Source: an endosymbiont of Galathealinum brachiosum (lineage in GTDB: Bacteria; Pseudomonadota; Gammaproteobacteria; SZUA-229). From it: DNA of 64,000 bases. Numbering within the stretch: the first letter of the stretch is position 1; each line of letters begins with the position of its first letter. Location: assembly GCA_003349885.1 (NCBI GenBank), contig QFXC01000002.1:3850-67849 (forward strand). The letters run 5' to 3'. Positions 3,166 through 64,000 of the stretch are shown in pieces. Below the pieces are notes generated by a model, which was given only the letters and a program-made list of their open reading frames with translations, had not been told where the DNA came from and did no database searches. A program made the position numbers and the translations under genes.

Positions 3166-4116
3166 TTAACTTCCAAACCAGAACGCCATATTTTTATCCA
3201 GAAACTCTTCATAACTCATATAATGTGAGCCATCACATGAAAAATTTAAACCCACCATTCCATTAACAACATTCAATGAAGCAGCACGTAAATAAATAGT
3301 TTCATCGGCAAAACGTAAGGCTTTAAACTGCTGAAATATCTGTGAAATTTTTTCTGGTTTTACAATGGCTTTGTCAAAATACTCCTGCTGACGATAAGCA
3401 AGACAAATATCCGGATCACTAAGCTCATCGAAATTTAATATATGATAACTATACGGATTATCAACTAACCAGAATGTGGCTCGACTACTTGAGAAATGCA
3501 ATTTTGCATGAAAAATTCCTCTGGTTAAAACAAGCTCTTCCACCAGACTCAGCACATCATCAATTTGTGCATCCATTGCACTTTGTGTACGCTGCTGTGA
3601 AAACAGGCCGCTTCGAATAGCCGGGTCACCTTTTACCTGTAACCAGATTTTTTCATCTTCTGACTCTTCAACGGTATGCGGTAATTCACGCAAATCAAAA
3701 TCAGCCCCCAGAAAACCGATTGCATTCCCATCTGCATCAACAATGGCCTTTACTGCAGTTAAAGATGGGCGTTTACGATTACGACTTATATACGCTTCTG
3801 ACAGGTAATAATCATCACCTTTTAAAGCACGCTGTAAGTAAGGCCGTGCGATACGGTCACGGCCAACTTGCCCGTCTTTAAAACCGGTGCGGGTAACATC
3901 TTCAGTTATCTGTATGCCGTGCTGATCAACAACCCATAAATACTTACAATATTGGGCTTTACCCATTTCTGCTGTAAGCAGGGTTTCCAGCGCTTTACGG
4001 TCATCCATAATGGAAGCGCAATCCGTCGCCATTTCTGACATTGAATCAAATAGTAATTCCGCAAGCATGTTTCGCTGCTTACTAACCGTTTTCTGTAGTG
4101 TGGTTTCGTTAATCAT
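3166..4116 (-). CDS. cytoplasmic Cache/PDC-like sensor domain protein
   Basis: YLSEAYISRNRKRPSLTAVKAIVDADGNAIGFLGADFDL resembles the Cache/PDC ligand-binding signature (Y.SdpYiS...P.it...pi.d..G..iGvlg.D.dl); stop/start 4 bp from MerB-like gene (operon). Confidence 0.45.
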   Translation of the reverse strand: MINETTLQKTVSKQRNMLAELLFDSMSEMATDCASIMDDRKALETLLTAEMGKAQYCKYLWVVDQHGIQITEDVTRTGFKDGQVGRDRIARPYLQRALKGDDYYLSEAYISRNRKRPSLTAVKAIVDADGNAIGFLGADFDLRELPHTVEESEDEKIWLQVKGDPAIRSGLFSQQRTQSAMDAQIDDVLSLVEELVLTRGIFHAKLHFSSSRATFWLVDNPYSYHILNFDELSDPDICLAYRQQEYFDKAIVKPEKISQIFQQFKALRFADETIYLRAASLNVVNGMVGLNFSCDGSHYMSYEEFLDKNMAFWFGS

Positions 4117-4258
4117 GGCTTATTCTAACCTGATTTATTTAAGCATACCCACATCTATTCCAGAATTTCTTATATCTGTGAAGGAGCAATCAACCGTAAT
4201 GATAGATTAACTCCGATTCATATGACTAAATTGAGATACGTCAATAACAACATTACAG

Positions 4259-5062
4259 TTAATCCACCCTTTCCATTCGCTCCCTCAGTTTAATCAGCAT
4301 CTTTTGAGTTTCAGCCAGTTCTTTCAACATTTCATCATGTGAAATTGGCTGACGCAGTTTTTCAAGCTGTTCAACTTTTGCTTCTTCCAGATTATTTAAT
4401 ACCACCGCTATAAATAAATTAACAATGACAAACGTACCAACAAATATGAAGCTAATAAAGTATACCCAGGCCCATTCATAATGTTCCATCGCGGTGTACA
4501 TTACATCTGTCCAGTCTTCCAGTGTAACCACTCGAAACAGGGTAAGCGCTGCAACTCCCAGATGCCCCCAGTGCTGAGGGTCATGAGTATGAAACAGGTG
4601 ATAACCTGCAATGGCATAAACATAAAAAATAATAGACATTAACAACATCACATGTCCCATGCTGGGAATACTGCGCATAAGTGTGGAAACAATCAGGCGT
4701 AGTTTCGGCAATGTTGATATTAACCTTAACACCCTGAGCAAACGAGCTAGCCGGGCAACCATCGCCAGCTCACCTGTTGCAGGGATTAATGAAAGCACTA
4801 TCACACTAAAATCAAACAGATTCCAGCCGTCACCAAAATACAGCTTCAGTCGTGGTACAACAGCGCTTATTTTTAACATTGCCTCAATAATAAACGACAT
4901 CAGAATAAACTGATGAGCCAATTCAAACCAGTATCCGTATTTACTTACCAAATCAGGATCAGTTTCCAAACCAAGAATAAGTGCATTTAATAGAATCAGG
5001 GAAATGATTATTTTTTCGAAAATGGCCGACTTGACCAGTTTATATATTTCAATTTGTAACAT
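4259..5062 (-). CDS. single-domain voltage-gated ion channel (BacNaV/NaChBac-like, Ion_trans family)
   Basis: 6-TM layout; S4 arginine ladder LARLLRVLRLISTLPKLR; pore helix/filter TLFRVVTLEDWTDVMY. Confidence 0.7.
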   Translation of the reverse strand: MLQIEIYKLVKSAIFEKIIISLILLNALILGLETDPDLVSKYGYWFELAHQFILMSFIIEAMLKISAVVPRLKLYFGDGWNLFDFSVIVLSLIPATGELAMVARLARLLRVLRLISTLPKLRLIVSTLMRSIPSMGHVMLLMSIIFYVYAIAGYHLFHTHDPQHWGHLGVAALTLFRVVTLEDWTDVMYTAMEHYEWAWVYFISFIFVGTFVIVNLFIAVVLNNLEEAKVEQLEKLRQPISHDEMLKELAETQKMLIKLRERMERVD

Positions 5063-5317
5063 AGGGGGTTCTAAATTAGTTGTTTCGTTAAATAGGGGTA
5101 TTTTTTATCGGAAAGATGGAAGCTTTAAACGCGCTAATCACTGCTTTACCAATAGATACTTTTCGAGAATGACGAGAATTTAAAAAATATAGATAAAATG
5201 AAATTTAGATGTCTTAATTCATGTTTTTATTCAATAAAATAATTAGCGACACTGTCATCCCCGGATGCGTCCATCGAAGATACAGTGCCCCTAAAACACA
5301 TTATATCTGCTTATAAA

Positions 5318-5989
5318 TTAATCATCCCCTCCCATTACTCCAAGCAAGTGAAGCAAACTGGTAAACAGATTAAATATAGAAACATATAATGTAACCGTAG
5401 CCATAATATAATTAGTTTCACCACCATGAATTAATTCACTGGTCTGATACAAAATAAGACCCGACATTAACAACACAAACATGGCCGATACGGTTAATGA
5501 TAAAGCGGGCATTTCTAAAAATACTGCCGCTAACCCGGTGAAGAAAGCCACTAGAATACCCACCATCAGAAAACCACTCATAAAACTAAAGTTTTTACGA
5601 CTGCTTAATGCATAAGCCGATAGAGATAGAAAAATAATGCCGGTTGCACCCATTGCTGTCATCACTATCTGCCCACCATTAGGTAATGCAAGATAACTAT
5701 TTAGAACAGGCCCCAGGGTGTATCCCATAAAACCGGTGAGAGCAAAGACAAAACCCAGACCTTTAGCACTATGACGAAATTTGGTGGTTAAAAACAACAG
5801 ACCAAAATACCCACCCAATGTTAATAACAACCCCGGGTGAGGTAAATTAAGCGACATAGAAACACCCGCCACCAATGCACTGAAAAGCAAAGTCATAGAC
5901 AGCAGGTTATATGTATTTCTAATAACTTTATTAGTCGCGAGCGTTGTGCTCTGGTTATAAGTTGCCGTGTTATTACTTACATCATTCAC
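5318..5989 (-). CDS. Bax inhibitor-1/YccA family inner-membrane protein
   Basis: 7 predicted TM helices, ~220 aa, C-terminal charged tail; family assignment by overall architecture. Confidence 0.5.
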   Translation of the reverse strand: MNDVSNNTATYNQSTTLATNKVIRNTYNLLSMTLLFSALVAGVSMSLNLPHPGLLLTLGGYFGLLFLTTKFRHSAKGLGFVFALTGFMGYTLGPVLNSYLALPNGGQIVMTAMGATGIIFLSLSAYALSSRKNFSFMSGFLMVGILVAFFTGLAAVFLEMPALSLTVSAMFVLLMSGLILYQTSELIHGGETNYIMATVTLYVSIFNLFTSLLHLLGVMGGDD

Positions 5990-5990
5990 T

Positions 5991-6380
5991 TTATAAACCC
6001 CTGTTCATTTCATTTACTGTTTCATCAGTAACCGGTTGCTCAATTTCAAATGCTTTTGTATTCGCCTGTTTTGATAATGTGTGCTGGCGATCAATTTTAC
6101 GTATCAGCGTTCTACCCGCTCGTTCAATCGCCCTGTTAATAGCAACATACATGTCAGACTCTGTATCTTCGATTACAACATCAGGCAATCCCGCAAGCAC
6201 GACCTGTACATGACAATGCATATCTGATCCCCCTCGTGGACCATTAACATCAGATAACCGCATTACAATTTTCTGTATATGCTCATCACAGCAGGTTAAT
6301 GTAAAACGTAATTTACGCTCAGCATGATTACGTAGAGCATCAGTCAGTGAAAAATGGCGTGCCTGTATATCAATTTGCAT
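5991..6380 (-). CDS. hpf: ribosome hibernation promoting factor (HPF/RaiA family); real start probably at MQIDIQ (6380), not 6422
   Basis: MQIDIQARHFSLTDALRNHAERKLRF parallels HPF N-terminus (MQLNITGHNVEITEALREYVETKFAKLERHF). Confidence 0.55.
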   Translation of the reverse strand: MQIDIQARHFSLTDALRNHAERKLRFTLTCCDEHIQKIVMRLSDVNGPRGGSDMHCHVQVVLAGLPDVVIEDTESDMYVAINRAIERAGRTLIRKIDRQHTLSKQANTKAFEIEQPVTDETVNEMNRGL

Positions 6381-6500
6381 ATAGCCCTCCTCAGAACTTG
6401 TTTTATGCCTAATATAAAACAATAATAATTTCCTTTGACAGTAAAGAAAATTCGATTAATATTGTAATTATGCTCGAAAATACCGAAGTGACTTACAGCT

Positions 6501-7403
6501 ATGGTTAATTACAAACATCTACATTATTTCTGGGCAGTTGCCCGTGAAGGCGGCGTTGCCCGTGCCAGTGAACGCCTGCACCTGACACCTCAAACGATTA
6601 GCGGACAACTTAACGTACTAGAGAAACACCTTGGTGTAGAGCTGTTTACACGGGTTGGTCGTAATCTGGAACTAACGGAAAATGGACGACTCGTCCTGAG
6701 TTATGCCAATGAGATTTTTTCCCTTGGTAGTGAGCTTGAGGAGGTTTTACATCAGTTACCTGATGAGCGCCCCCAGTTATTTCGTGTCGGGGTGGTCGAT
6801 GTATTGCCGAAGTCAATTGCCCATCAAATTTTAAAACCGGCTTTGCAAATGTCCGATCCCGTTCGCATGAACTGCCGTGAAGCCAGTTTGGATACACTAT
6901 TAGCAGAACTGGCTGTACATCATCTGGATCTGGTTCTGGCTGACTGCCCTATTCCATCAACCGTCAGTACACGGGGTTTCAGTCACAAACTTGGCGAGTG
7001 CGAGGTGAGTTTCTTTGCAACAGATAAAATCATAAAAACACTCAAGGGTGACTTTCCCCAGTGTCTGGATGGCGCTCCCATGCTTTTACCCAGCAGCGGA
7101 ACACAGTTACGATCGGGCATTGATAAGTGGCTGAATAAACTGCGAATTCATCCCCGTACAGTTGCCGAGTTTGACGATAGTGCATTAATGAAAGCCTTTG
7201 GAAAAGAAGGCTCCGGCATTTTCATTGCTCCGGCCGTTATTGAAAAGGAAGTAGAGTTACAGTATCAGGTTTCTTTAATTGGCAGAACGGATGAAGTTAA
7301 AGAACAATTTTATGCAATATCTGTAGAACGCAAAGTCAAACATCCAGTCGTTTGTGCCGTGATTGATGCGGCCAGTGAAAGGTTATTTATTAACCATAAA
7401 TAA
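6501..7403 (+). CDS. nhaR: LysR-family transcriptional regulator, NhaR-like
   Basis: N-terminal HTH NYKHLHYFWAVAREGGVARASERLHLTPQTISGQL closely parallels E. coli NhaR; immediately upstream of nhaA. Confidence 0.7.
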   Translation: MVNYKHLHYFWAVAREGGVARASERLHLTPQTISGQLNVLEKHLGVELFTRVGRNLELTENGRLVLSYANEIFSLGSELEEVLHQLPDERPQLFRVGVVDVLPKSIAHQILKPALQMSDPVRMNCREASLDTLLAELAVHHLDLVLADCPIPSTVSTRGFSHKLGECEVSFFATDKIIKTLKGDFPQCLDGAPMLLPSSGTQLRSGIDKWLNKLRIHPRTVAEFDDSALMKAFGKEGSGIFIAPAVIEKEVELQYQVSLIGRTDEVKEQFYAISVERKVKHPVVCAVIDAASERLFINHK

Positions 7404-7423
7404 TTAATTAGAGTTTAAAAATT

Positions 7424-8794
7424 ATGAAAATAAGAAATATGAAGACAGGTGTTTATAACGCTCGCTGGGAAAAAAGTTTTGATAAAATTTTAACTCCATT
7501 TGATGAATTTATTCATCGCCAGACAACCAGTGGATTACTCTTAATGGCAATGGCTGTAATCGCCCTTATACTGGCAAATGGCCCATTTGCAGATGCCTAT
7601 TTACATTTCATCCATACACCGGTCAGTGTTGAAGTTGGCAGCTGGTCATTAGGAATGAGCCTGCACCACTGGATTAACGATGCCCTGATGGCACTGTTTT
7701 TCTTTGTTGTCGGACTGGAATTGAAACGAGAATTACTGGTTGGAGAACTTGCAAAAATACGTAATGCCACATTACCTATTGCCGCGGCAATAGGTGGTAT
7801 GGTCGTACCTGCATTAATTTATTTTGCTATCAACCCATCAGGCGATGCGGCACTTGGCTGGGGTGTTCCCATGGCTACGGATATTGCATTCGCAATCGGC
7901 GCACTCGCATTACTGGCAAGTCGGGTTCCCAAAGCATTAATTACATTTTTAGTTGCACTGGCTATTGTAGATGACCTGGGCGCTGTGCTGGTTATTGCCA
8001 TATTCTACACTGAAACAATCTCAATGATGCCACTGGCAATAGCCGGTGGTATATTCCTCATGTTGATGATGTTAAATCTGGCTGGAATTCGTAAAACCAC
8101 GCCTTATTTTATTCTTGCAGCATTACTCTGGTATGCATTATTACAATCCGGTGTGCATGCAACGCTGGCAGGTATTTTGGGTGCGCTCTCGGTTCCAGCA
8201 ACGCCAAAATATAACCCAGAACGTTTCAGTCAACATGTTAGAGGTTTAATGCAACGCTTTGATGACAGCCACCAACCAGACAAAAGCATTATGACCAATG
8301 ATGCTTTACGCTCGGTAGTACGAACACTTGAAAACGGTGTGCACAGTGTGCAGGCACCTTTACAACGCCTGGAACATGACTGGCATATGCCGGTGGCTTA
8401 TTTAATTATTCCTATTTTTGCACTGGCCAATGCAGGCATACCTTTAGAAATGAGTTCACTCGGTGAAACTTTCAGTCACCCGGTAATGCTCGGTGTTTCT
8501 CTCGGACTTATTCTGGGTAAATTTATCGGTATTACAGGTGCCTGCTGGTTGGTCTTAAAAATGGGCATAGCAGAATTACCCAAGGATACTCGCTTCACTC
8601 AAATTGCCGGGGTTTCATTACTTGCAGGCATTGGTTTTACAATGTCTATCTTTGTCGCACAACTGGGTTTTTCACATAATGAAGATTTATTACTAATGGC
8701 CAAAACAGGCATTCTGTTTGCATCTTTATTAGCTGGTATTAGCGGTTATGTCTGGTTGTATCTGGTAAGTAAACCACAAGGCAACGAATCATAA
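7424..8794 (+). CDS. nhaA: Na+/H+ antiporter NhaA family
   Basis: ~12 TM helices, NhaA-like N-terminal block (ILANGPFADAYLHF), adjacent to nhaR homolog. Confidence 0.7.
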   Translation: MKIRNMKTGVYNARWEKSFDKILTPFDEFIHRQTTSGLLLMAMAVIALILANGPFADAYLHFIHTPVSVEVGSWSLGMSLHHWINDALMALFFFVVGLELKRELLVGELAKIRNATLPIAAAIGGMVVPALIYFAINPSGDAALGWGVPMATDIAFAIGALALLASRVPKALITFLVALAIVDDLGAVLVIAIFYTETISMMPLAIAGGIFLMLMMLNLAGIRKTTPYFILAALLWYALLQSGVHATLAGILGALSVPATPKYNPERFSQHVRGLMQRFDDSHQPDKSIMTNDALRSVVRTLENGVHSVQAPLQRLEHDWHMPVAYLIIPIFALANAGIPLEMSSLGETFSHPVMLGVSLGLILGKFIGITGACWLVLKMGIAELPKDTRFTQIAGVSLLAGIGFTMSIFVAQLGFSHNEDLLLMAKTGILFASLLAGISGYVWLYLVSKPQGNES

Positions 8795-9043
8795 ACTGGA
8801 ATTATTTATAATGTTTTTAAAAAGTTTAAGCTTTTTTTCTATTCGTTTTTATACTGTCTGGTTGTCGCTCTCCCCTTTATATCAATCTGGCTAAAAGCAA
8901 TGATTGAACAGGGGGGAGTTTTGTAAGACGTACGACGCGCTGAAGAAGGAAAAACTGGTTATTTTAATCTGTAGAACCGGTAAGCGAACCAGACAACTAT
9001 CAAGAATGCTAACTGGAAAATACGCTTACACTATAAGCACTGA

Positions 9044-10309
9044 CTATTTTTTCCGGGTTTTCATTAGTGATTCCATCTTTTGAATTAACTCAGGGCTATC
9101 CCACTCAATTGCCGCATTAACACCAAACTTTATCTCTCCATCCAGGCCGATAACAAAGGTAGATGGATAGGTAATAACCTTCCATTGCTTCGCAAAATCA
9201 CCATCATTATCCAGCAAAACAGGATATTCAACATTTACCTGTTTCATAAATCTGGCTATTTTATCTTTATCTTCAGCGTAATTAATTGAAATAAGCTCAA
9301 ACGGCAAGCCATCCATTTTTTCTTTTAAGCGATTTAAAGAGGGAATTTCTTCAACACAGGGCCCGCACCAGGTCGCCCAGAAATTAACCAGTGTAATCTG
9401 ATCTTTAAAATCTTTTTTAACTACCCTGTTGCCGTATACATCAGCAAGCTCAATCGCAATGGGTTTAACATTACCTTTAAACTCTTTAAGGTAAATATCA
9501 ATACCCGAGCCTGATTTGCTACGTGATGACAAAGCGACTGCATTGTCAGGCACTTTATGCTTATCCAGTACTGAAAGCATCTTTACAACATTACGAGGCA
9601 AAGGGCCAGCCTGTTTCAGCATCGCTTTAGAGGGCTCTTCTTTATAAAAAAGACTCATCACTTCAGGCACATATTTAGTGTAAACAGGGTTATCATTTTT
9701 TTGCAGCAATTCCAGTAACGAATCAAACTGACCAATTGCCCCGCTACCTTTTGCCTGATAAATCATAAGGGGAATATTGGTAGAAGAAATAACCGGCATA
9801 TATTCAGGCGCCATACCAAGTGAAGGAATATAAGCGTAGGTATAAGGTGAAAAAAGAATAGCCCCGACAAGATCAGCTTTCGTATTCACTCTTTTCTGCA
9901 ACTGATGCGCACCGGTCAATGCGGCTAAAGCACCATAAGAATCACCCGCCAGTATAATTTTTTTGCCTGTTGTTTTATGAGCATACTCAATAACATCAGC
10001 AATAAAACGACCATCAAGCGACCTTAAAGGTTCTGCCCCTCTAAGCATAAATAACGATTCGATAATATCTGCTTGCCAGACTTCAACACCTGATTCAGAT
10101 AATGACCGGGAAAATAAGGTGTGGGCTTTGCGAAAACCATATTCTGGTGGCAACCAGATAATTAAATATTTTCCATCCGCGGGAAAGGTGTTAACTAAAA
10201 TTTCAGAATCATCAGCTGACGGAACACTAAGCTCATCAGCAATGCTTATTTTGCTTTGAAAAAACAAACTGATAAAAACAAAAACACCCATTAATACAAC
10301 TTTATTCAT
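9044..10309 (-). CDS. secreted alpha/beta-hydrolase fused to C-terminal TlpA/ResA-like thioredoxin domain
   Basis: signal peptide; GDSYG nucleophile elbow; C-terminal LVNFWATWCGPCVEEIP thioredoxin CxxC block. Confidence 0.55.
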   Translation of the reverse strand: MNKVVLMGVFVFISLFFQSKISIADELSVPSADDSEILVNTFPADGKYLIIWLPPEYGFRKAHTLFSRSLSESGVEVWQADIIESLFMLRGAEPLRSLDGRFIADVIEYAHKTTGKKIILAGDSYGALAALTGAHQLQKRVNTKADLVGAILFSPYTYAYIPSLGMAPEYMPVISSTNIPLMIYQAKGSGAIGQFDSLLELLQKNDNPVYTKYVPEVMSLFYKEEPSKAMLKQAGPLPRNVVKMLSVLDKHKVPDNAVALSSRSKSGSGIDIYLKEFKGNVKPIAIELADVYGNRVVKKDFKDQITLVNFWATWCGPCVEEIPSLNRLKEKMDGLPFELISINYAEDKDKIARFMKQVNVEYPVLLDNDGDFAKQWKVITYPSTFVIGLDGEIKFGVNAAIEWDSPELIQKMESLMKTRKK

Positions 10310-54953: not shown

Positions 54954-55385
54954 CTACTTATTAATAAATAACTGATTGATTTCATCAGATTTAAGAATAG
55001 CCGCTAATTTATACGCTTGCCCTGTTTCCTGAATCAATACTTCAGCAGGTATACCTAAGCCTTGATGTAACTTACGAATCATACTTAAACTTAATGGTCG
55101 TTTTCCATTAAGCACTTCTGATACTTTTGATGCAGAACCAAAATATTTAAGCATATCTTTTTGCTGCAACCCCTGCTGCTCCATACGAAATTTAATAGCT
55201 TCAAGAGGCACAGGTTTATCGACAGGAAACTGTTCACGCTCATAGTGTTCAATTAGCACTGACAACACTTCCAGCTCATTCTCTTCATTAGAACCAGATG
55301 CAGGATTCAAATGCATTAATGCCATCAATCGTTCAACAGCCAATTTATGCTCAGCTTTAGACTTAATTACTTTTAGAATAGACAT
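54954..55385 (-). CDS. higA: HigA antitoxin (E. coli YgjM type, C-terminal HTH)
   Basis: GSASKVSEVLNGKRPLSLSMIRKLHQGLGIPAEVLI parallels E. coli HigA GSKSMVSRVLSGKRKLTLEHAKKLATRFGISPALFI. Confidence 0.8.
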   Translation of the reverse strand: MSILKVIKSKAEHKLAVERLMALMHLNPASGSNEENELEVLSVLIEHYEREQFPVDKPVPLEAIKFRMEQQGLQQKDMLKYFGSASKVSEVLNGKRPLSLSMIRKLHQGLGIPAEVLIQETGQAYKLAAILKSDEINQLFINK

Positions 55386-55396
55386 TAACCATCTCC

Positions 55397-55681
55397 TTAA
55401 AACTTTTGCTTATCATACTCAGCATGCGTACCAACCCATTCAATAACGACGATTCCATTCTGATACCTCACTTTCACTACAAGGCGATAGTGATTACCTT
55501 TAATATTAAAAATTACCCGGTTATCTGCCAGAAAATCAGCGGAGTTATACCTGTTTTTAATATCCTGCGGTGTAACCCATTGAGCTCTGTTCGCCTCATC
55601 AAACCATGCGTCTAATGCGCCTTTGCCGTGATTATGCTTTTTTGAGAACTTATCAAGTATGTCACGTCCTATGACTCTCAT
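55397..55681 (-). CDS. higB: HigB toxin (RelE/ParE superfamily, E. coli YgjN type)
   Basis: NRVIFNIKGNHYRLVVKVRYQNGIVVIEWVGTHAEYD parallels E. coli HigB HYVFNVGGNELRVVAMVFFESQKCYIREVMTHKEYD; toxin-first order. Confidence 0.8.
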   Translation of the reverse strand: MRVIGRDILDKFSKKHNHGKGALDAWFDEANRAQWVTPQDIKNRYNSADFLADNRVIFNIKGNHYRLVVKVRYQNGIVVIEWVGTHAEYDKQKF

Positions 55682-55691
55682 ATAGATCTAC

Positions 55692-55735
55692 CTTCCCATT
55701 TTGGGAATTATACACTCATTTCCCAAAATGGGAAG
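55692..55735. promoter_or_regulatory. perfect 16-bp inverted repeat in higBA promoter (putative HigA operator)
   Basis: cttcccattttgggaa ... ttcccaaaatgggaag, 12-bp spacer, 11 bp upstream of higB start. Confidence 0.55.
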
Positions 55736-56870
55736 ATTAAATATAATTTATGTCCTTAGATTTAACTTATTTATAACCTCTAAGCTAACATATTGATATA
55801 TATGGATTATATTTCAAAGTTAGCGATATAAATCTTCAGCTTTAGCAAGTGAACCGTATATAAGCACCAGTACTATTTGCTCATTTACTGACGTAATGCT
55901 GCCTTAATTACATCTACAATGGCAAACGTTTTTCGAATCATATTTAACAACTCACTGTAGGAGTTATCTTCAGATGACGATACAAAAGCGATGCGAAGCG
56001 AGCCATGTAACTTACACAACACACACCGCTTAGTAACAACCATCACAACTCATAACAAACCCCAGTCTCTTTAACCTCCCCACTCCCATCACCACCAACA
56101 TCATCACGCACCAACTGCTGCTCAATAAACTCATCAAGCGCATCACCATGCACCAGATAAACCCCTTTACGAAGCCGATACAAAAACCGCGTGCGACTCA
56201 TTTCAACCCGCCCTGGCTCAATAGTTGAAGCCGGTAAAAATGAATTATTGTAATCAGTAGTCACATCAGAAAAATAAGCCTTAAACTGTTTAAGCGTAAC
56301 CACCACACCCCTGTCTTCAATAGAACCCAACTCCCCCTTAACCACCGCATCTAAAAACCGCTGCTTTAAAGTGATGATAAATCCTTATCAAATTTAATTA
56401 CCAAACTCACAACACACAACTCGCACCTAAACCCAACGCTTCACTACTCGTTCCCACGGTCCCCCTTGGTAACGCATACCAAACTCAAAGTACGATACAA
56501 ACCCAAAACATCATTCCTTCTCCTTACCACCCACCTGATTCATCTCAAAAATTCCACTAATAATTTCCCCCATCACCCACAAATAATTATCAACCTGCTC
56601 ATGAAACACATCAGGGTGAACATCATCACCACAACACACAGGTTTAAACACAGGCGGGTTATCAAGCAAATGAACAAGATGCCCCGTATAACGAATCAAG
56701 CGCACCTTATACTGAGTATCATTAAACCTGGTGGGTAAACCTTGCTCATCATCCACATCAAAAGAATGAAACCGCAACGGAATTTCAACCAGCTTAGCTG
56801 GCTTAGAAGAAGACTTTTCAAATTGATCATCACACATAAAAACACTCCCTATTAAAAGTTAACCATCTCT

Positions 56871-56947
56871 TGTAGGTGCTCCTTCAGGTGCACATCTTTT
56901 GTAGTTTCATAACCATTATGTTTAGTGCACCTAAAGGAGCACCTACA
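56871..56947. repeat. inverted pair of repeat D 23-mers forming a long hairpin
   Basis: tgtaggtgctccttcaggtgcac ...31 nt... gtgcacctaaaggagcacctaca. Confidence 0.6.
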
Positions 56948-57711
56948 AAGTAAAACGTCATACCTGCGAAGGCAGGTACCCAGCGACTTAAAATCAAATA
57001 TAAAAGGAAACCAGAACCCCAAACGAGGCTCCAGCAAGTTCAACCACCCATGACTAATACACACTGCCAAAACACAAAACCCACCCACAGCAAAACCTCA
57101 ACAACACACAATCTCGCAGTCGAATTAAAGCAGGCCTGATCAAAAAACGAACAATAACGCCCGTGGTTTCCAATAAACCGAACAGATAAAGTGAAATCAA
57201 AGAATAAAAGCGCCGAAACTCACCTGAGAATACAGAAAAATGCACAGGTAAAAACGCAGGGTGTGAAGAAAAATAACGGATTGCCGAAAAAAAACTACCG
57301 GCAATAGGGTGTCCTAGCTTAGAATGTGTCTCAGCCATATTCAACTCGTTATAGTTGGTTGTGGTTAGCAGGCTTTCGGTGTTACAGCACCTTGGGTCTG
57401 CGATTTTTTATTTTATAAAGTTAGTTAGCCGATAGATCTCTCCTGTTGTTTTCTGTAGTTATTAAAACCACATATATTAAAAATAGATAATGAAGCGCAC
57501 GTTGTTAATGCTCGCTTATTGAGTGTATGCAAGGTGGAAGATAGTTGTCAAATTAATATTTTATAGAACTACAGATGTGATTTTATACTTTTCAGACTAC
57601 TACTTAAAATCATTTATATTTATAAGCATTAAGAAAATAAACATGAAGCAACTAACGTACTACTTGAAGCTATCATGACCCTATATATTTATTTACTTAC
57701 ACTAAAACAGG

Positions 57712-57996
57712 TTAAGTTATATTATGACTTGAAGGCAATGAGACTTGATAACGAGAGCCAACTTTGAAATATTCAATACGCCCTTCATTAACTAACTTTT
57801 CCATCATTACCGACATCAACCAGCCTTTCTGACCATCTTCTGTAGGACTATAAGACAGCAAATCAAGACCAAGATCTTTTTTTAGAACAGCGGCTTTAAC
57901 TGAAGCTTGACCATCATTAGATTGCAATCTAATATAATCTATAATTACGTCACCAATAGAATTAAGATGATTTTCTATATTTTTCTTATGATTCAC
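57712..57996 (-). CDS. small hypothetical protein downstream of the 3-gene cassette
   Basis: ORF only; 188 bp downstream of the REC gene on the same strand. Confidence 0.3.
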   Translation of the reverse strand: MNHKKNIENHLNSIGDVIIDYIRLQSNDGQASVKAAVLKKDLGLDLLSYSPTEDGQKGWLMSVMMEKLVNEGRIEYFKVGSRYQVSLPSSHNIT

Positions 57997-58184
57997 TCAA
58001 CACCTTCCAATCCTCTTCATTCGATTTATACCATCCATTTATTACTTGCTATTTATAGAACAATGCTCAACACATCCTATTATTAGGAATAATTTCGTAC
58101 TGACAATTGATAATGGCATATTGAAATTTAAAACCATAATAATTTTCATTCTGAACTGCCTGATAAATTGTATTCTAATTAGAT

Positions 58185-59090
58185 TTAGTTTATAAACTTT
58201 TTAAAATCCGACTGAATTTTTAATAGCTGCATTCGAAGTCGCTTAAACTCATCAAAATTATATTCTTTTTCATCACCACCATGTGAATGCAGAATCAATT
58301 TACCTTCATCTGTTAGCTTAGCATGTTGATGTGCCAATTTATTCCTTTCTGATTGTGTTTTACATAAATTGGAACCTTCAGACAAAAACTCGTGCTGAGC
58401 CGATCCTTCTTCAAAGAGCTTTTTGAAGGCAACACGAATAACTTGAAATTCAGTCAAAAAAGGATCCTTAATTGCATCTTCTACACATGTTATTTTTTCA
58501 ACTTTTACGGATTGATTAAAAACTTTATCTTTTAATTTCTCCTTTATATATTCTAGGAGCTCAGACCGCTTAATAGGATCGAGTGCTGTACATGCCTTGT
58601 TAAAGGAATCTCTCATTTTTACATCTGTGTGACTCATAGATGACATAACCACACCACGGATATTATTAATATCTGATATTTTTTTTATATGATCTTCAAT
58701 TAAAGCCTCAACTTGATCATTAAATATTTCTCTATCAATAATAAAGACTCCATCAACCTTAGAATCATAAAGTTTTTTTCTAAGGACATTTTGCTTGGTT
58801 CCACTATAGAATATTAAGTCAGTGTAAATCTGTCTACGCAACTCCTTCGCTATAGTAAGCCCATCCTCACTATCACCGCCCAGATCATAGTCAAATATAA
58901 TTAAATCATAAGGATTATAATTAGATAATGTTGATGCAAGCTTTCGAATATCATCATAACTAATTTTTGTTTCTTTTTCTATTTCAGGAATAAACCCGTG
59001 AGAGGAGACAAAATCCTCAACATTAGAAACTGATTCTTTAACGTTTTCAAACTGATCTTCAAACCATAATATTTTATATGTTAATTTCAT
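58185..59090 (-). CDS. receiver (REC) domain protein with unrecognised ~180-aa C-terminal domain (cassette gene C)
   Basis: KILWFEDQ (acidic pair E11/D12), DLIIFDYDLGGD (candidate phospho-Asp D66/D68), IFYSGTK (S/T + K); overlaps upstream gene by 4 nt. Confidence 0.6.
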   Translation of the reverse strand: MKLTYKILWFEDQFENVKESVSNVEDFVSSHGFIPEIEKETKISYDDIRKLASTLSNYNPYDLIIFDYDLGGDSEDGLTIAKELRRQIYTDLIFYSGTKQNVLRKKLYDSKVDGVFIIDREIFNDQVEALIEDHIKKISDINNIRGVVMSSMSHTDVKMRDSFNKACTALDPIKRSELLEYIKEKLKDKVFNQSVKVEKITCVEDAIKDPFLTEFQVIRVAFKKLFEEGSAQHEFLSEGSNLCKTQSERNKLAHQHAKLTDEGKLILHSHGGDEKEYNFDEFKRLRMQLLKIQSDFKKFIN

Positions 59091-61462
59091 AATTTTTTTA
59101 CATTTATAGTTAACCCTAACCCTCTATCAGGTTGATTATCTGATAGAGATATTTCACCACCCATTTTTTCTAACTGTTTTCTTATATGATATAAACCCAA
59201 ACCAGAGCCTCTTGTGGTCGTATATCCTTTTTCAAATATTCTCTGTGGTTCGATTACTTTACTATCTAAACCGTTACCATTGTCAACCACTTCAATATTT
59301 AACACATTATTTAAAGCAGAAGAAATAATAAAATCAACCCTTGAAGCACGTGCTTTATTCGAATTATTCACAATATTATCAAGAATAACACCCAATTCTA
59401 TTGGTGTGAAATTTGTAACAAATCCTTTTGTATTATTAATAACATTTATATTAATACCATGGTGATATGATGTAGTTATTTTATCTAGATATTGTTCAAT
59501 ATGTTGACATATATCAGCATGTACTTTTTCTGAATCTAACTTATAGTTAGCTAAAGTAGCGAACCTAGAGGTGGTGATTATTTTTTCAATTAACACCAAT
59601 AGCTCATCAAGAATATCTCTAACTGTATCACTAGAAATTTCTTCAGTTTTATTTAAAGAGAAATACTTCCTAAAGGCATTTTTTAGTTTTTGTCTATTTT
59701 CAACAGCGTAAATGATAATTTGGTGCATAAAGCTCTCAAGCTGATCTTTATCACGTGATTCACTGGATGTTAAATATAAACTCCTCTTTTTCTCGTCTTC
59801 GTAAGCCGTGCTAATTTTTTCTTTTTCAGTCTCAGCAGCAACCCTTCCTTGGCGTTCAGAACTCTCTCTGTGTTCAGCCTTTATTCGCGCTTCAATTTCT
59901 TGCTCTGCTATCTTTAAAGCGTCATCTTTTTCTTTCTCTAATTTCTCATACTCTCTGCGTGCAGATGAAACAGCTTTTTTTAAATTCACATCATTTGAGT
60001 CTTTAGCAAGTGACTCTAAATTATTAATTGATTTTTCAAAATATACTGATTTTTCATTTAATACTGAAACTATATCTTTATTATATTCAAGAAGATCGAG
60101 GTTATCAGACTTTGAAAGACTTTCAATCAATTTGATGATTTTCGTTCTATTTTCATCAAGTCCAAGTCGCTCAGCAGTCTCATGTATTTTATCTAACTTA
60201 TCTTTCCAATTCACGCCCACCACATAGCTTTCGAAACGTCTAAGGCATTTATTTTTAACACACTCCTGCAATTGATCTGACGCGATAGTTTCTACCAAAC
60301 CTTTATCTCGACTAGAAGATTCTTTAAATTTGAATTCTTCTCCAGCAATATCAACTCGACCCAGTATATCTCGTGTACCTAGATAACGACTGTATCCTTG
60401 TTGTTTTCGAACATCGATTTTCCAATAATCATTACCTGGCTCACCAACAGGAAATACTCTAAAGCCATTACGAAACAAAAACAAAGAACCAAAACTAACT
60501 ACAGACAAAGCCATTTGTTTTTTAAATGTTAATTTTGCAGAATTATTCAAATAAAACAACTGACAATTAAAACCGCTATCTAACAATTCATCGTATTCAG
60601 GTATTTTTTCTCTAATTTTATATATCAACGTACCACGATCAATCAGATCACTGTAAAGCCAACCATCAGACTTAAGATAAACATGCAACCATGTAGTTTT
60701 TTCCCTTAAAGTTTCAAGAATGTAGTTTTTAACAATTCCATTTACTAATTCTGCCTGTCTATTTTTATTACCCAACTTCTTTTTTTCTTTTAAATCACCA
60801 CTTTCTTCCAAACTACTATGCAAGAAAACATCTAAGCTGTTGCCATCTTCACCAAATGGATTAATTAACTTAGTAAGATGTCTTTTAAGTGATAATAATT
60901 TTTTTCTGTCCCATGATTTTTTTTCTCTTAAATTTGAAATCTCTACTACTACACCACTACTAATAGCGTCAACTTCTTTAGGAAAATCAAAGTCTTCAGA
61001 TTCATTATGAAAAACAGCGATATCGCCAAATAACTCAGTAGAATCTTTTTCAAAACTCCCCCAGTCGACATCTAAAATATCAACATGATCCATACCCTTA
61101 GTTTTTGCCTGAATCCTAAGCTCACCACCTAATCTATCACATGAAAAACGACCTACTCCCTTGTTTCCAGCATATGTTCTATTTTTATCTTGATCCTCTG
61201 TCCCATCTCTTTTTGCTGAATAAGCTACAAAAAGCCATTTATTAGTAAAATCATCAAAATCCATTCCTTTACCATTATCAATCACATAAATTTTTTCGAC
61301 ATCTCTTCCATCGTATTTAAATACTATATCCACACGGCTAGCATTTGCATCAAATGAATTCTTTACCAACTCAAATATTGCAACGTAGTCATTAGTAATA
61401 AGATCACGTCCAATAACTGATTTTAAAGAAGAACTTACTTTAAAATTCAATAACTCTGTCAA
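59087..61462 (-). CDS. dual GHKL protein: N-terminal MORC-like HATPase_c_3 + coiled-coil + C-terminal histidine-kinase-type HATPase_c (cassette gene B)
   Basis: N-term: IFELVKNSFDANA (N-box), VIDNGKGMD (G1), SAKRDG..GNKGVGRFS (G2/G3); C-term: ILDNIVNNSNKA (N-box), VVDNGNGLD (G1), GSGLGLYHIRK (G2); central E/K/R-rich coiled coil with candidate His in LESFMHQIIIYAVEN. Confidence 0.7.
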   Translation of the reverse strand: MTELLNFKVSSSLKSVIGRDLITNDYVAIFELVKNSFDANASRVDIVFKYDGRDVEKIYVIDNGKGMDFDDFTNKWLFVAYSAKRDGTEDQDKNRTYAGNKGVGRFSCDRLGGELRIQAKTKGMDHVDILDVDWGSFEKDSTELFGDIAVFHNESEDFDFPKEVDAISSGVVVEISNLREKKSWDRKKLLSLKRHLTKLINPFGEDGNSLDVFLHSSLEESGDLKEKKKLGNKNRQAELVNGIVKNYILETLREKTTWLHVYLKSDGWLYSDLIDRGTLIYKIREKIPEYDELLDSGFNCQLFYLNNSAKLTFKKQMALSVVSFGSLFLFRNGFRVFPVGEPGNDYWKIDVRKQQGYSRYLGTRDILGRVDIAGEEFKFKESSSRDKGLVETIASDQLQECVKNKCLRRFESYVVGVNWKDKLDKIHETAERLGLDENRTKIIKLIESLSKSDNLDLLEYNKDIVSVLNEKSVYFEKSINNLESLAKDSNDVNLKKAVSSARREYEKLEKEKDDALKIAEQEIEARIKAEHRESSERQGRVAAETEKEKISTAYEDEKKRSLYLTSSESRDKDQLESFMHQIIIYAVENRQKLKNAFRKYFSLNKTEEISSDTVRDILDELLVLIEKIITTSRFATLANYKLDSEKVHADICQHIEQYLDKITTSYHHGININVINNTKGFVTNFTPIELGVILDNIVNNSNKARASRVDFIISSALNNVLNIEVVDNGNGLDSKVIEPQRIFEKGYTTTRGSGLGLYHIRKQLEKMGGEISLSDNQPDRGLGLTINVKKL

Positions 61463-61498
61463 CTTATATACTCCTTAGGTTTCTGTTTGGATTTTTCA

Positions 61499-63967
61499 TC
61501 ATTTAGTATTGTCTTTTTTAATAACTTCGAAAAATGGATTAGCACGTATAACTTGTCCATCCACACCAAGCGTCTTATACAAACACTCATGACATTCCAA
61601 AGATTTAATCGAATCAACAACATCTGAATTAACAGCCGTCAACCCTATACCTTCAAGCTCTTTTATCGTTACATTTGGTACTTTATGTACAAACCAGGTT
61701 AGAAGTGGCTCCAAATAATTCTCATGCGAAGTCTTAAAATGAGATAAGTACTGTGAAGCAAGCAATACTCCAACCCCAAACTCTCTACCCTGCAACAAAA
61801 TCTTTTTCAAAACATCAAATTCATATTGCATGATGTTATCAGCTTCATCAACAAGCAACATAGTATCAACAAATCTCAATTTAGGATCTTCACCAATAAA
61901 TGGCTTTTTCTCAATTCTAAGCATATGCTCATAAAACAAGTTCAAAAATATAACAACGAGCATATTCTTTGTTCTATCATCTTGCCCTATTTCTGATAAA
62001 TCGATGACTACTACACCTGTAAGAAACTCTGAAAATGGAATAACATCCTTACTATCTGATACAAAGTAACCACCATCTACTAGATCATCCATAATATTGT
62101 ATGGTGTATCTGGTGACTTAATTGCTTCTTTATAACAATCAAAAACGTCATTAATTGTTGGTGCTATTTTTCCATTAGCATTTGTTATTTCGTACGACTC
62201 TTTAACTGCAGCCTTTATGCGTGAACGCTGAACAGGCCCTATACCTGGATAAATTTTATCTAATACATCTATGAAGAATTTTGTTCTCTCAAGCCATGCC
62301 CTGCCTTTTTGAGAGCTATCTCGAATATCAAACAAATTTAACGGTATATCAAAAGGTGAAACTACTTTTGCACCTGTTGCTTTAACAAAGTCATCTTTTG
62401 AATAGTCTCGCTTGTAGTCAAATATTAATATATTTGGCCTTTTACCCCTATTCATATCAGGTTTAGCACCCATTTGTTGAACAAGCGCTTGGATTAACTG
62501 TGTTTTGCCTGTTCCTAAATCACCTACAATACCGACATTAAGCTGATTTAACGCTGTATTACCAGGAAAAAAGAACAATTCTTCATTAGTAAACTTATTT
62601 ACTGTTTCACCAACACTAAATTTAATACCTTCTGGTGATGGATCACTAGTAATTATTTCATCTTTATCTGTTTCTTTTGCCTTTTCAACTTCTGCTTCTA
62701 CTTTGGCTACAGAATCATCTACTAAGATTTCTTTTTCCGTGGGTTCACCCGTTTCTACTTCGGGCAATACTGTTGTCTCTACTTTTGTTTCTACATCAGG
62801 TGATATTTCTGGATTTGTTTTTGGTTCAGTCTTTGGCTTTATATCTAATGTATCTTTCGAGTCTAGCTCAGGTAATAGCTGCCAATTACCCATCTTAGAG
62901 TTTATAGATTTAGAAAAAGCACTATCACATCTAGCTAACACTGAAAAAGCTTCAGCATGTGTTAGATGCATGGTTTCATTAAAACCATCTTTATCTATAT
63001 CTTGTAGCGATTCATTCTCTGAGCTATCTATGACAATAAGCCTTCCTCGTGTATCTATATCTATATCCAATTCATTATTTGCAATTGATTTTAATATAGA
63101 TGAATGCTGCTGCGCCCATTCTTTCTGATTCATGAACTGTTCGAGCTGACCGTATACTCTAAAACCATAATCTAGCATGGTTGCTAGAAGATTACGCCAT
63201 GCGATACCCCACAAATCAAATTCTTTTGCTTTTGTTTGTATATCATGAAGAAATTCTGAAAAATGACTAGCCTGACACAAAGCTGCCTCTCGCTCATTAG
63301 GTGACATGGTGCCACCTCTTGCTTTAACTTCTACAGGCGTTATACGCATTTGAATTGGCTCACCTGAAACAAACTGCATACTCAAAACTAAAAGATCTGG
63401 ACGCTCACCATATTTAAAGCCTATAGCTGTGCGTAAATCATCGAAGTGTTTCTGGAATGGATCAGCAGAGATAATCAGGTTTAATGTATCATCATCCTTA
63501 ACTGGTAATAACCCTGTTGCTGTAGCACCCCGCTCAAAGTCAGATTGAAAAATACGAAGCGCAGTTAACATTCCAATTTCTCCAAGTGACATTGAGCCAC
63601 CTGCAGTTAAACGCTTTAGTGTTGGCATACCCCTACGTGATATTTCTTCTAATATTTCAGAAATTCTTTCATCAGTTAATTCACTATTCTCACCTAATAA
63701 TATAAGAGCTGATCTAACAGCTTGCAGCATTCCAGGTGATTCTTTTGCCAGTAGGTAATAACCACTATTCTCACCTGCACGACGCGCATATGATGGTAAC
63801 TCATAATCCCAAAGATAAGCCTTTTCTGTGGAACCAAAAAAACAGGCTGCATCAACATCTGTTGATGACAATGCTGTATAACGTGAACCGCCAACAACAT
63901 CTGCTAACTTAGCCATATCAGGTGCAAAAACATAACTGTCAAAATCTTCTTTACATTGACGCTCCAC
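61499..63967 (-). CDS. PD-(D/E)xK-like nuclease domain + low-complexity linker + HerA/FtsK-like P-loop ATPase (cassette gene A); N-terminus probably beyond window edge
   Basis: RPDLLVLS...ITPVEVKARGG (PD..E.K); linker KPKTEPKTNPEISPDVETKVETTVLPEVETGEPTEKE; Walker A GIVGDLGTGKTQL, HerA-like ILIFDYKRDY, Walker B MLLVDEADN; called start is GTG and frame stays open to position 64000. Confidence 0.65.
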   Translation of the reverse strand: MERQCKEDFDSYVFAPDMAKLADVVGGSRYTALSSTDVDAACFFGSTEKAYLWDYELPSYARRAGENSGYYLLAKESPGMLQAVRSALILLGENSELTDERISEILEEISRRGMPTLKRLTAGGSMSLGEIGMLTALRIFQSDFERGATATGLLPVKDDDTLNLIISADPFQKHFDDLRTAIGFKYGERPDLLVLSMQFVSGEPIQMRITPVEVKARGGTMSPNEREAALCQASHFSEFLHDIQTKAKEFDLWGIAWRNLLATMLDYGFRVYGQLEQFMNQKEWAQQHSSILKSIANNELDIDIDTRGRLIVIDSSENESLQDIDKDGFNETMHLTHAEAFSVLARCDSAFSKSINSKMGNWQLLPELDSKDTLDIKPKTEPKTNPEISPDVETKVETTVLPEVETGEPTEKEILVDDSVAKVEAEVEKAKETDKDEIITSDPSPEGIKFSVGETVNKFTNEELFFFPGNTALNQLNVGIVGDLGTGKTQLIQALVQQMGAKPDMNRGKRPNILIFDYKRDYSKDDFVKATGAKVVSPFDIPLNLFDIRDSSQKGRAWLERTKFFIDVLDKIYPGIGPVQRSRIKAAVKESYEITNANGKIAPTINDVFDCYKEAIKSPDTPYNIMDDLVDGGYFVSDSKDVIPFSEFLTGVVVIDLSEIGQDDRTKNMLVVIFLNLFYEHMLRIEKKPFIGEDPKLRFVDTMLLVDEADNIMQYEFDVLKKILLQGREFGVGVLLASQYLSHFKTSHENYLEPLLTWFVHKVPNVTIKELEGIGLTAVNSDVVDSIKSLECHECLYKTLGVDGQVIRANPFFEVIKKDNTK

Positions 63968-64000
63968 TTCATCAACACAACTTAATAATTTGCCTGTTAT

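Follow-up and report, generated by a model that had tools for sequence, protein, structure and literature searches.

A DndH-like nuclease-motor protein from an endosymbiont contig and its relatives linked to cytosine methylases

What is a protein that joins a restriction endonuclease (REase)-like domain to a HerA/FtsK-type ATPase in one chain, and what kind of system does it serve? The question is raised by Gene A, located on the minus strand at positions 61499..64000, the end of a 64,000-nucleotide stretch (the window, meaning the whole stretch of DNA that was analysed) from an endosymbiont of Galathealinum brachiosum (GenBank assembly GCA_003349885.1, contig QFXC01000002.1). With a probability of roughly 70%, we consider Gene A to be the nuclease-motor subunit of a DndFGH-like, translocation-coupled restriction system keyed to 5-methylcytosine (m5C), and with the same confidence we assign its visible part, which makes up the C-terminal 45% of the protein, to the large H subunit of such a DndFGH-like module.

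Extent of Gene A and its homologues

The minus-strand frame of Gene A is open over 833 codons from position 64000 to the stop codon at 61499-61501, with a GTG at 63967 as the earliest in-frame start and no stop between this GTG and the window edge. The same coordinates and open frame had been given by a sequence-only reading of the window, which called the GTG as the start, noted that the open reading frame (ORF) overruns the window, and placed the true N-terminus probably outside. The relatives bear this out: their full-length proteins have 1,710 to 1,940 amino acids (aa), the fragment aligns from about their residues 1000-1400 onwards, and the closest of them, P0062 (74% identity), has 1,833 aa. 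Judged from these lengths, about 1,000 N-terminal residues, corresponding to about 3 kb at the 5' end, lie beyond the window edge, and Gene A is annotated here as a partial coding sequence for a DndH-superfamily H subunit with a total length of about 1,830 aa, of which the last 833 codons and the stop are present. The sequence-only description of Gene A as a nuclease plus HerA fusion has to be revised on this point, as the relatives show it to be the final portion of a larger protein with several domains. Its 833 visible codons are intact and can be aligned over their entire length with relatives that look functional.

A word-indexed search found 61 homologues. When residues 1-400 were used as the query of an exhaustive phmmer search, 204 cluster representatives reached an E value of ≤1e-3. 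The search space comprised 1.84 billion representatives, in which the Gene A subfamily, divergent and rarely sampled, accounts for about 200 clusters at 50% identity.

The nuclease region and the linker

The visible part begins with a conserved alpha/beta region (residues 1-169; 63494..64000, minus strand), which continues from a methyltransferase-fold domain seen in the relatives and carries the motifs SSxxxD..F, YLWDYxLPxY, and ExxRRGxPT. It is followed by a PD-(D/E)xK restriction-endonuclease core (residues 170-260; 63221..63493, minus strand) with D180 (VDPF), D202 (RPDLL), E224-x-K226 (PVEVK), and Q243. The sequence-only reading had recognised the segments RPDLLVLS (residues 200-207; 63380-63403) and ITPVEVKARGG (residues 220-230; 63311-63343) as a PD...(D/E)xK arrangement with a spacing of about 20 residues. 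This assignment holds: D202 and E224 are 22 residues apart, and D202, E224, and K226 are invariant, together with D180, R200, R228, and Q243, in a 37-sequence alignment of the family that extends to 31% identity. All motifs quoted in that reading, including the linker and the ATPase motifs ILIFDYKRDYS and MLLVDEADNIM, were found in their places.

The core is followed by a helical bundle with a small beta element (residues 261-387; 62840..63220, minus strand), for which the family alignment shows a conserved GFRVY, RGRLIV, and W373 and the AlphaFold2 model shows helices at residues 262-307 and strands at residues 312-347. The model, which covers residues 1-400, has a mean predicted local distance difference test score (pLDDT) of 83 and a predicted template modelling score of 0.82, with pLDDT values above 90 across residues 170-330. 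It predicts a nuclease fold for the N-terminal region, neither all-alpha nor transmembrane, and so answers the objection that this region might be an all-alpha domain without nuclease character. A Foldseek search did not yield a significant match. Considering D202, E224, and K226, with D180 and Q243, the endonuclease domain is active-looking by its sequence.

Between the helical bundle and the motor lies a low-complexity linker rich in K, E, P, and T (residues 388-448, KPKTEPK...TDKDE; 62657..62839, minus strand). Its length and sequence are hypervariable in every relative, and its modelled start, residues 391-400, has a pLDDT below 50, in agreement with the earlier impression that the linker is intrinsically disordered.

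The motor ATPase

The C-terminal domain (61502..62638, minus strand) is most similar to the motor of DptH. The phmmer search against PDB aligns residues 473-827 of Gene A with residues 15-374 of the DptH C-terminal domain (7es4_A) at an E value of 8.4e-49, 169 bits, and 34% identity. The Walker A motif GIVGDLGTGKTQL covers residues 490-502 (62495-62533), with the key residues G493, K499, and T500, and is followed by ILIFDYKRDYS at residues 524-534 and by the Walker B motif MLLVDEADNIM at residues 714-724 (61829-61861), with D718-E719. R739 in GREFG (61775-61789) represents the Arg finger and Q750 in LLASQ (61751-61768) the sensor-1 residue. In the 37-sequence alignment, conservation reaches ≥90% for both Walker motifs as well as for GREFG and SQ. 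A Q sensor-1 and an Arg finger are the described criteria for HerA/FtsK ATPases (PMC10853773), and because the conserved R739 and Q750 fit them, the ATPase of Gene A can be assigned to this class, as the sequence-only reading had proposed.

Among the PADLOC models, those for DndH gave the top matches, aligning residues ~200-826 of the fragment to profile positions ~1100-1715 of ~1715 at an E value of 4e-80. The PADLOC HerA match (E value of 4e-6) extends across 90 residues only, and neither the NCBIfam model HerA_antiphage nor the PADLOC SspH models match Gene A.

Relation to DndH and DptH

DndH is described as an eight-domain protein with a length of about 1,700 aa, its last two domains being an active REase and a HerA/FtsK ATPase, and according to the same publication an "REase plus RecA-like ATPase" had already been reported for DndH by an earlier structural study (PMC10853773). 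The view that a single-chain nuclease-HerA protein is unusual can therefore not be kept; the nuclease-motor fusion of Gene A is the already known DndH design, namely the C-terminal module of DndH/DptH, cut by the window edge. Gene A shares with DndH an active-type PD-(D/E)xK REase domain directly N-terminal to the motor, and the relatives share with it a DAM-like methyltransferase-fold domain upstream of the REase, which in its published form is inactive and comes with a target-recognition domain. The N-terminal part of DndH consists of an inactive SWI2/SNF2 C-domain, a helix-turn-helix, and beta-sandwich domains (PMC10853773). The AlphaFold model of the region upstream of the nuclease in the relative P0003 (799 aa, pLDDT of 69, starting after the first ~380 residues) shows an all-beta sandwich followed by an alpha/beta domain, a domain order that agrees with the published "beta-sandwich ... 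inactive DAM ... REase" of DndH. A DPPY-type catalytic motif was not seen in the family consensus of the methyltransferase-fold domain, which appears to be catalytically dead in the relatives.

Similarity to DptH is not confined to the motor. Comparing an 88-sequence profile of the family chassis, from which the motor was removed, with a four-sequence profile of canonical DptH, hhalign results in one co-linear match (8-1288 to 6-1170; 1,047 columns) with an E value of 5.6e-6, a probability of 86%, and about 15% identity. A thinner comparison lets the catalytic motifs coincide, with RPDLLV, TPxEVK, and ALxQA in the family corresponding to DDVLFV, LPLEVK, and AVEQA in DptH. They suggest that the homology to DptH outside the motor, which becomes visible only when profiles are compared with profiles, is real but remote.

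Beyond the succession of REase and HerA/FtsK ATPase with a Q sensor-1 and an Arg finger, the full-length family proteins resemble DndH/DptH, as known from Salmonella Cerro 87 and E. coli B7A (PDB ID 7ES4), in their predicted beta-sandwich and methyltransferase-fold domains, in a length of about 1,700 to 1,850 aa, in being encoded last in a row of overlapping or abutting genes whose first two members may correspond to F and G, and in the "capture" of motors from different sources.

A cassette with a cytosine methylase

Relatives of Gene A are found in 24 loci (L001-L018 and L022-L024, which are 21 loci, and L031-L033), collected by a genome scan, a plasmid search, and contig look-ups, the gene content being determined by protein clustering and tblastn. 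The loci share a conserved cassette composed of a Dcm-type C5 methylase, a protein of about 700 aa (F'), a protein of about 500 aa (G'), and the relative of Gene A with about 1,800 aa (H'). Of the 24 loci, 21 have both F' and G', and 20 have the Dcm-type C5 DNA methylase (PF00145/TIGR00675); a few loci, L005, L014, and L022, lack a detectable Dcm. The cassette Dcm is always a directly flanking gene and occurs in either orientation, its place being immediately upstream, on the same strand, or immediately downstream. Its linkage persists across motor types and down to identities of about 30%.

A Vsr endonuclease gene is found in 10 of the 24 loci, and in L002 and L031 its equivalent position is occupied by an annotated HhH-GPD glycosylase gene. 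L003 contains a related fragment, which clusters with the gene of L002. Cassette genes of these two types are located at 12468-12908 in L022, 12482-12919 in L006, 12512-12925 in L013, 11490-12191 in L031, and 14305-15051 in L002. In the closest relative, at 74% identity and located in L031, the gene order is F'-G'-H'-HhH-GPD-Dcm. Enzymes of the Vsr and HhH-GPD types repair the T:G mismatches that arise from m5C deamination, and in the cassette they look like alternative routes of this repair, implying that the cassette methylase is active.

Genes for phosphorothioation were not found in the DNA searched. The tblastn search for DndB, DndC, DndD, and DndE gave no match in the window or in the 21 related loci, including flanks of up to 10 kb on each side, and canonical dptF and dptG were not found in the same regions either, whereas two of the canonical control loci, L020 and L029, have dnd/dpt genes adjacent. 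The subfamily is consistently tied to cytosine methylation and not to phosphorothioation, differing from DndFGH by its link to a Dcm C5 methylase and Vsr or HhH-GPD and never to dndBCDE.

The F' proteins have an invariant Walker A motif, GGPGNGKT, and a conserved cysteine cluster of the form CxxxxxCPFC, and show a weak affinity to P-loop kinases (Zeta_toxin with an E value of 2e-4, and adenylate kinases among the PDB matches). Compared with DptF by hhalign, F' shows two co-linear matches with E values of 3e-4 and 7e-3, and the match to PADLOC SspF is marginal (E value of 2e-4). DndF has been described as a P-loop kinase of derived type, in some versions with an insert that binds Zn, and precedes DndH in the operon together with DndG, a triple winged helix-turn-helix protein (PMC10853773) with a reported size of 450 to 500 aa. 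The Walker A motif, the cysteines, and the kinase and DptF matches of F' fit this description of DndF, and the size of G' (~500 aa) lies within the range reported for DndG. On plasmids, NCBI annotates the products of F', G', and H' with the labels "hypothetical", "DUF87 domain-containing", or "ATP-binding" protein, and within the family, the PADLOC models recognise only the H' protein.

Some copies of the cassette are incomplete. In L022, on the conjugative plasmid p64a of Sinorhizobium fredii GR64, the H' gene is broken by an IS21-type element with IstA/IstB (6625-8870), F' and G' are not detectable upstream of H', and vsr is kept downstream; this locus is a decayed copy of the cassette. L005, from a metagenome-assembled genome of Akkermansiaceae, has a 1,812-aa H' homologue (3669-9107) whose neighbours lack F', G', and the family-3 Dcm and whose upstream genes lie on the opposite strand, making a stand-alone or rearranged copy possible.

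In several metagenome or plasmid records, the H' gene is distributed over two or three ORFs (L001 3000-8478, L002 8562-14047, L018 7009-12382, and L024 4205-10495), which may be due to frameshifts, assembly errors, or pseudogenes. This splitting accounts for the "full-length" homologues of 1,300 to 1,450 aa in the first search.

Motor exchange on a common chassis

The C-terminal motor varies within the family. Sorting 100 long members by their last 420 residues, with distant members found by a query of the nuclease module, gives 55 DptH-type, 28 RuvB-like AAA+, 8 FtsK/SpoIIIE, and 5 HerA-like motors, and 4 unclassified ones. The assignments rest on matches to NCBIfam RuvB (E value of 2e-28), NCBIfam FtsK (E value of 4e-44), and PADLOC SspH (C-terminus only, E value of 1e-54). 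The distant members keep the recognition-nuclease chassis and the Dcm-F'-G'-H' cassette despite the other motor. Motor-swapped members are found in L032 (6071-11206), where the RuvB-type locus has the order Vsr-Dcm-F'-G'-H', and in L033 (7972-13167), where the FtsK-type locus has the order Dcm-F'-G'-H'-Vsr, and they include the proteins P0141, P0189, P0180, P0169, and P0192. As the same chassis and cassette occur with different motors, it can be argued that the role of the motor is generic DNA translocation.

A "capture" of HerA/FtsK motors has been described for DndH, but the family also includes RuvB-like AAA+ motors, and the words "RuvB" and "Vsr" do not occur in that publication; among its retrieved passages on methylases, none couples a cytosine methylase to DndFGH (PMC10853773). 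In the literature searched, whose coverage is incomplete, neither a Dcm-linked FGH module nor a RuvB-type motor on a DndH-like chassis was found to be described.

Proposed mechanism and comparison with other systems

The canonical DndFGH forms a 2:2:1 F:G:H complex with translocation-coupled nicking, phosphorothioate (PT) marks on self DNA repress its ATP hydrolysis so that translocation stops, and cells without the PT mark are damaged by the unrestrained DndFGH nuclease (PMC11662687). Modelled on this system, the H subunit encoded by Gene A would assemble with the P-loop kinase-like F' and with G', which may act as regulatory or recognition subunits. DNA-recognition domains like those of the relatives, including a beta-sandwich and the apparently dead methyltransferase fold, would be provided by the ~1,000 N-terminal residues beyond the window. 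ATP hydrolysis by the C-terminal motor would move the complex along DNA, and the REase domain with D202, E224, and K226 would nick or cut DNA that lacks the mark of the host. This self mark is most likely m5C, written by the Dcm-type methylase of the cassette, and Vsr or HhH-GPD would repair the T:G mismatches left by its deamination.

Another close known system is SspFGH, a PT-sensing module that pairs with SspABCD (PMC8092258). It likewise has three genes F, G, and H, with a Walker A motif in F and an H protein ending in a translocase-like domain; F' matches SspF marginally, and the FtsK-type members match the SspH C-terminus. However, Gene A itself has no SspH match, in the distant members only the motor matches SspH, and no ssp genes are nearby.

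The Type I, Type ISP (LlaGI/LlaBIII), and Type IIG (BpuSI) restriction enzymes resemble the family, as modelled here, in that a methylase writes the self mark and one large polypeptide houses a PD-(D/E)xK nuclease and an ATP-driven motor together with a target-recognition/methyltransferase-fold module. In the family, the internal methyltransferase fold appears inactive, methylation would come in trans from a C5 methylase, the motor belongs to the HerA/FtsK (or RuvB) class instead of the SF2 helicases, and there are two extra subunits. NurA-HerA, HerA-SIR2, and HerA-DUF4297 also combine a HerA/FtsK-superfamily ATPase with a nuclease, whereas Gene A has the REase fold in cis and no separate NurA or DUF4297, and its matches to HerA models are marginal and partial.

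Going further, Gene A may belong to an undescribed third FGH branch beside DndFGH and SspFGH, with an m5C mark from the cassette Dcm, repair by Vsr or HhH-GPD, and a chassis of about 1,400 aa that has repeatedly swapped DptH-type HerA/FtsK, FtsK/SpoIIIE, HerA-like, and RuvB-like motors. We put this forward tentatively, being slightly more inclined to doubt it than to accept it.

Several observations weigh against an m5C-keyed, DndFGH-like system. G' has no detectable sequence similarity to DptG. The NCBIfam models for DptH (TIGR03237), DptF (TIGR03238), and DptG (TIGR03236) do not match the Gene A fragment at an E value of ≤0.1, give nothing at an E value of ≤1 for F' and G' of L003, L007, and L016 or for H' of the first two of these loci, and do not match five distant family members. 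By tblastn, the 64-kb window contains none of F', G', Dcm, and Vsr, so that their presence upstream of the window in the source genome is only an extrapolation from the relatives, and the place downstream of H', where the closest relative has its Dcm, is here taken by an unrelated GHKL gene. The subfamily also appears uncharacterised, and one published view regards DndFGH as a stand-alone sensor without a modification partner of its own (PMC10853773).

This last view, by Rakesh, Aravind and Krishnan, leads to the alternative that survives best, though we consider it unlikely: a DndFGH-type sensor whose F subunit senses nucleotides or proteins of the invader, with the Dcm being unrelated or co-mobilised. 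The resemblance of F' to P-loop kinases and the few loci without a detectable Dcm would suit such a sensor. A merely co-mobilised methylase is, however, difficult to reconcile with a Dcm in 20 of 24 loci, always in a flanking position, and across motor types and identities down to about 30%, or with the frequent Vsr and HhH-GPD genes, which imply that the methylase is active; the PT-less mutants moreover show that canonical DndFGH needs the self mark against self-damage (PMC11662687).

That Gene A is an ordinary phosphorothioate-dependent DptH, with a dptF/dptG and dndBCDE cluster elsewhere in the genome, is considerably less probable. PADLOC ranks its DndH models at the top, JGI calls several homologues DptH, the ATPase domain is 34% identical to the solved DptH domain, and dndFGH and dndBCDE are frequently uncoupled in genomes (PMC10853773). 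However, TIGR03237, which spans residues 6-1235 of canonical DptH from a Massilia plasmid, including the REase region, fails on the fragment, the full-length relatives, and the distant members alike, whereas the Massilia DptF, DptG, and DptH score 447, 299, and 1,171 bits with the same NCBIfam models. F' is also longer than DptF (~700 aa versus ~540 aa), and the family is linked to Dcm and Vsr in loci where dndB/C/D/E and canonical dptF/G were not found. By these comparisons, the Gene A family is not canonical DptH.

The island around Gene A

Gene A is followed, 36 bp after its stop codon, by a gene for a 791-aa double-GHKL ATPase protein (59087..61462, minus strand), identified by Pfam (HATPase_c_3 with an E value of 1.3e-21, HATPase_c with 7e-20) and NCBIfam (BbrUII/HgiDII N-terminus with 6e-19). 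Its N-terminus is MutL/BbrUII-HgiDII-like, its middle is long and coiled-coil-like, and its C-terminus is of the histidine-kinase type. The next gene (58185..59090, minus strand) encodes a 301-aa protein with a weak receiver-like N-terminus (Pfam cREC_REC, E value of 0.002, below the cut-off), which is probably the partner of the GHKL protein because the two genes overlap by 4 bp.

This arrangement raises the question of whether Gene A is an orphan or rewired, either a remnant without F', G', and Dcm or a partner of the GHKL ATPase and the receiver-like protein. In its favour, no terminator-like or promoter-like site is reported in the 36-bp gap, the similarity to the locus of the closest relative ends at the H' stop codon, and the GHKL protein has its best plasmid homologue (full-length identity of 26%) in Stenotrophomonas, encoded immediately after a Dcm gene. 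But the GHKL pair was not found beside H' in any of the 24 related loci, and GHKL homologues exist without an H' gene, as in that Stenotrophomonas locus and in Enterobacter mori, where a two-gene module of GHKL and a protein of about 360 aa lies next to an AbiJ-domain gene. Together with the intact 833 codons described above, this makes an orphan or rewired Gene A about as improbable as a phosphorothioate-dependent DptH, if not a little more so. The GHKL/receiver-like pair is probably a separate, defensive module of the same island and may represent an uncharacterised defence or restriction-modification-like module.

Least probable by far is that Gene A serves a mobile element as a coupling protein for conjugation or as a secretion ATPase of the VirB4/TraG type, an identity ruled out by the nuclease fold and the DptH match at 169 bits: the best Pfam match, TrwB_AAD_bind (E value of 6e-6), reaches no further than profile positions 13-72 of 387, a stretch of about 60 residues surrounding Walker A, the NCBIfam matches to CedB and VirB4 are weak (30 bits for VirB4 against a cut-off of 643, the cut-offs of such models being 640-700), the ATPase, contrary to the grouping with coupling proteins considered beforehand, has 7ES4 as its top match, and no tra or vir genes are among the scanned neighbours.

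At about 54.9 kb, a HigB toxin (94 aa, PF09907, E value of 7e-31) and a helix-turn-helix antitoxin (143 aa), paired at 54954-55681 on the minus strand, mark the apparent left boundary of the variable island with Gene A. Genes of ordinary chromosomal appearance lie to the left of it, where Pfam identifies a metallophosphoesterase, an AhpC/thioredoxin-like protein, a COQ9-domain protein, and a DEAD-box helicase. The region at 55.7-58.1 kb has small ORFs only, and the three of them that were scanned gave no family match. The GC content is 31-32% at 58-62 kb, compared with 33-43% (mostly 36-41%) in the rest of the window, and the GC skew is strongly negative, at -0.22 to -0.35, across 56-62 kb. 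The composition at 55700-62000 would fit DNA acquired by horizontal transfer; the window showed neither a tRNA gene nor an integrase.

Significance

The value of Gene A lies at the level of the subfamily, which is missed by the curated DptF/G/H models and tied to a C5 methylase, and not in the fusion itself. Confirmation of an m5C-keyed system would mean that DndFGH-like translocating nickases are not specific for sulfur modification, and would bear on the question of why many dndFGH loci lack the dnd modification genes. With its different motors on one chassis, RuvB-like AAA+ motors included, the family provides a natural experiment on what the motor contributes. If the family is indeed a third branch, FGH translocating nucleases would be a general restriction platform, which can be keyed to base methylation or to backbone sulfur.

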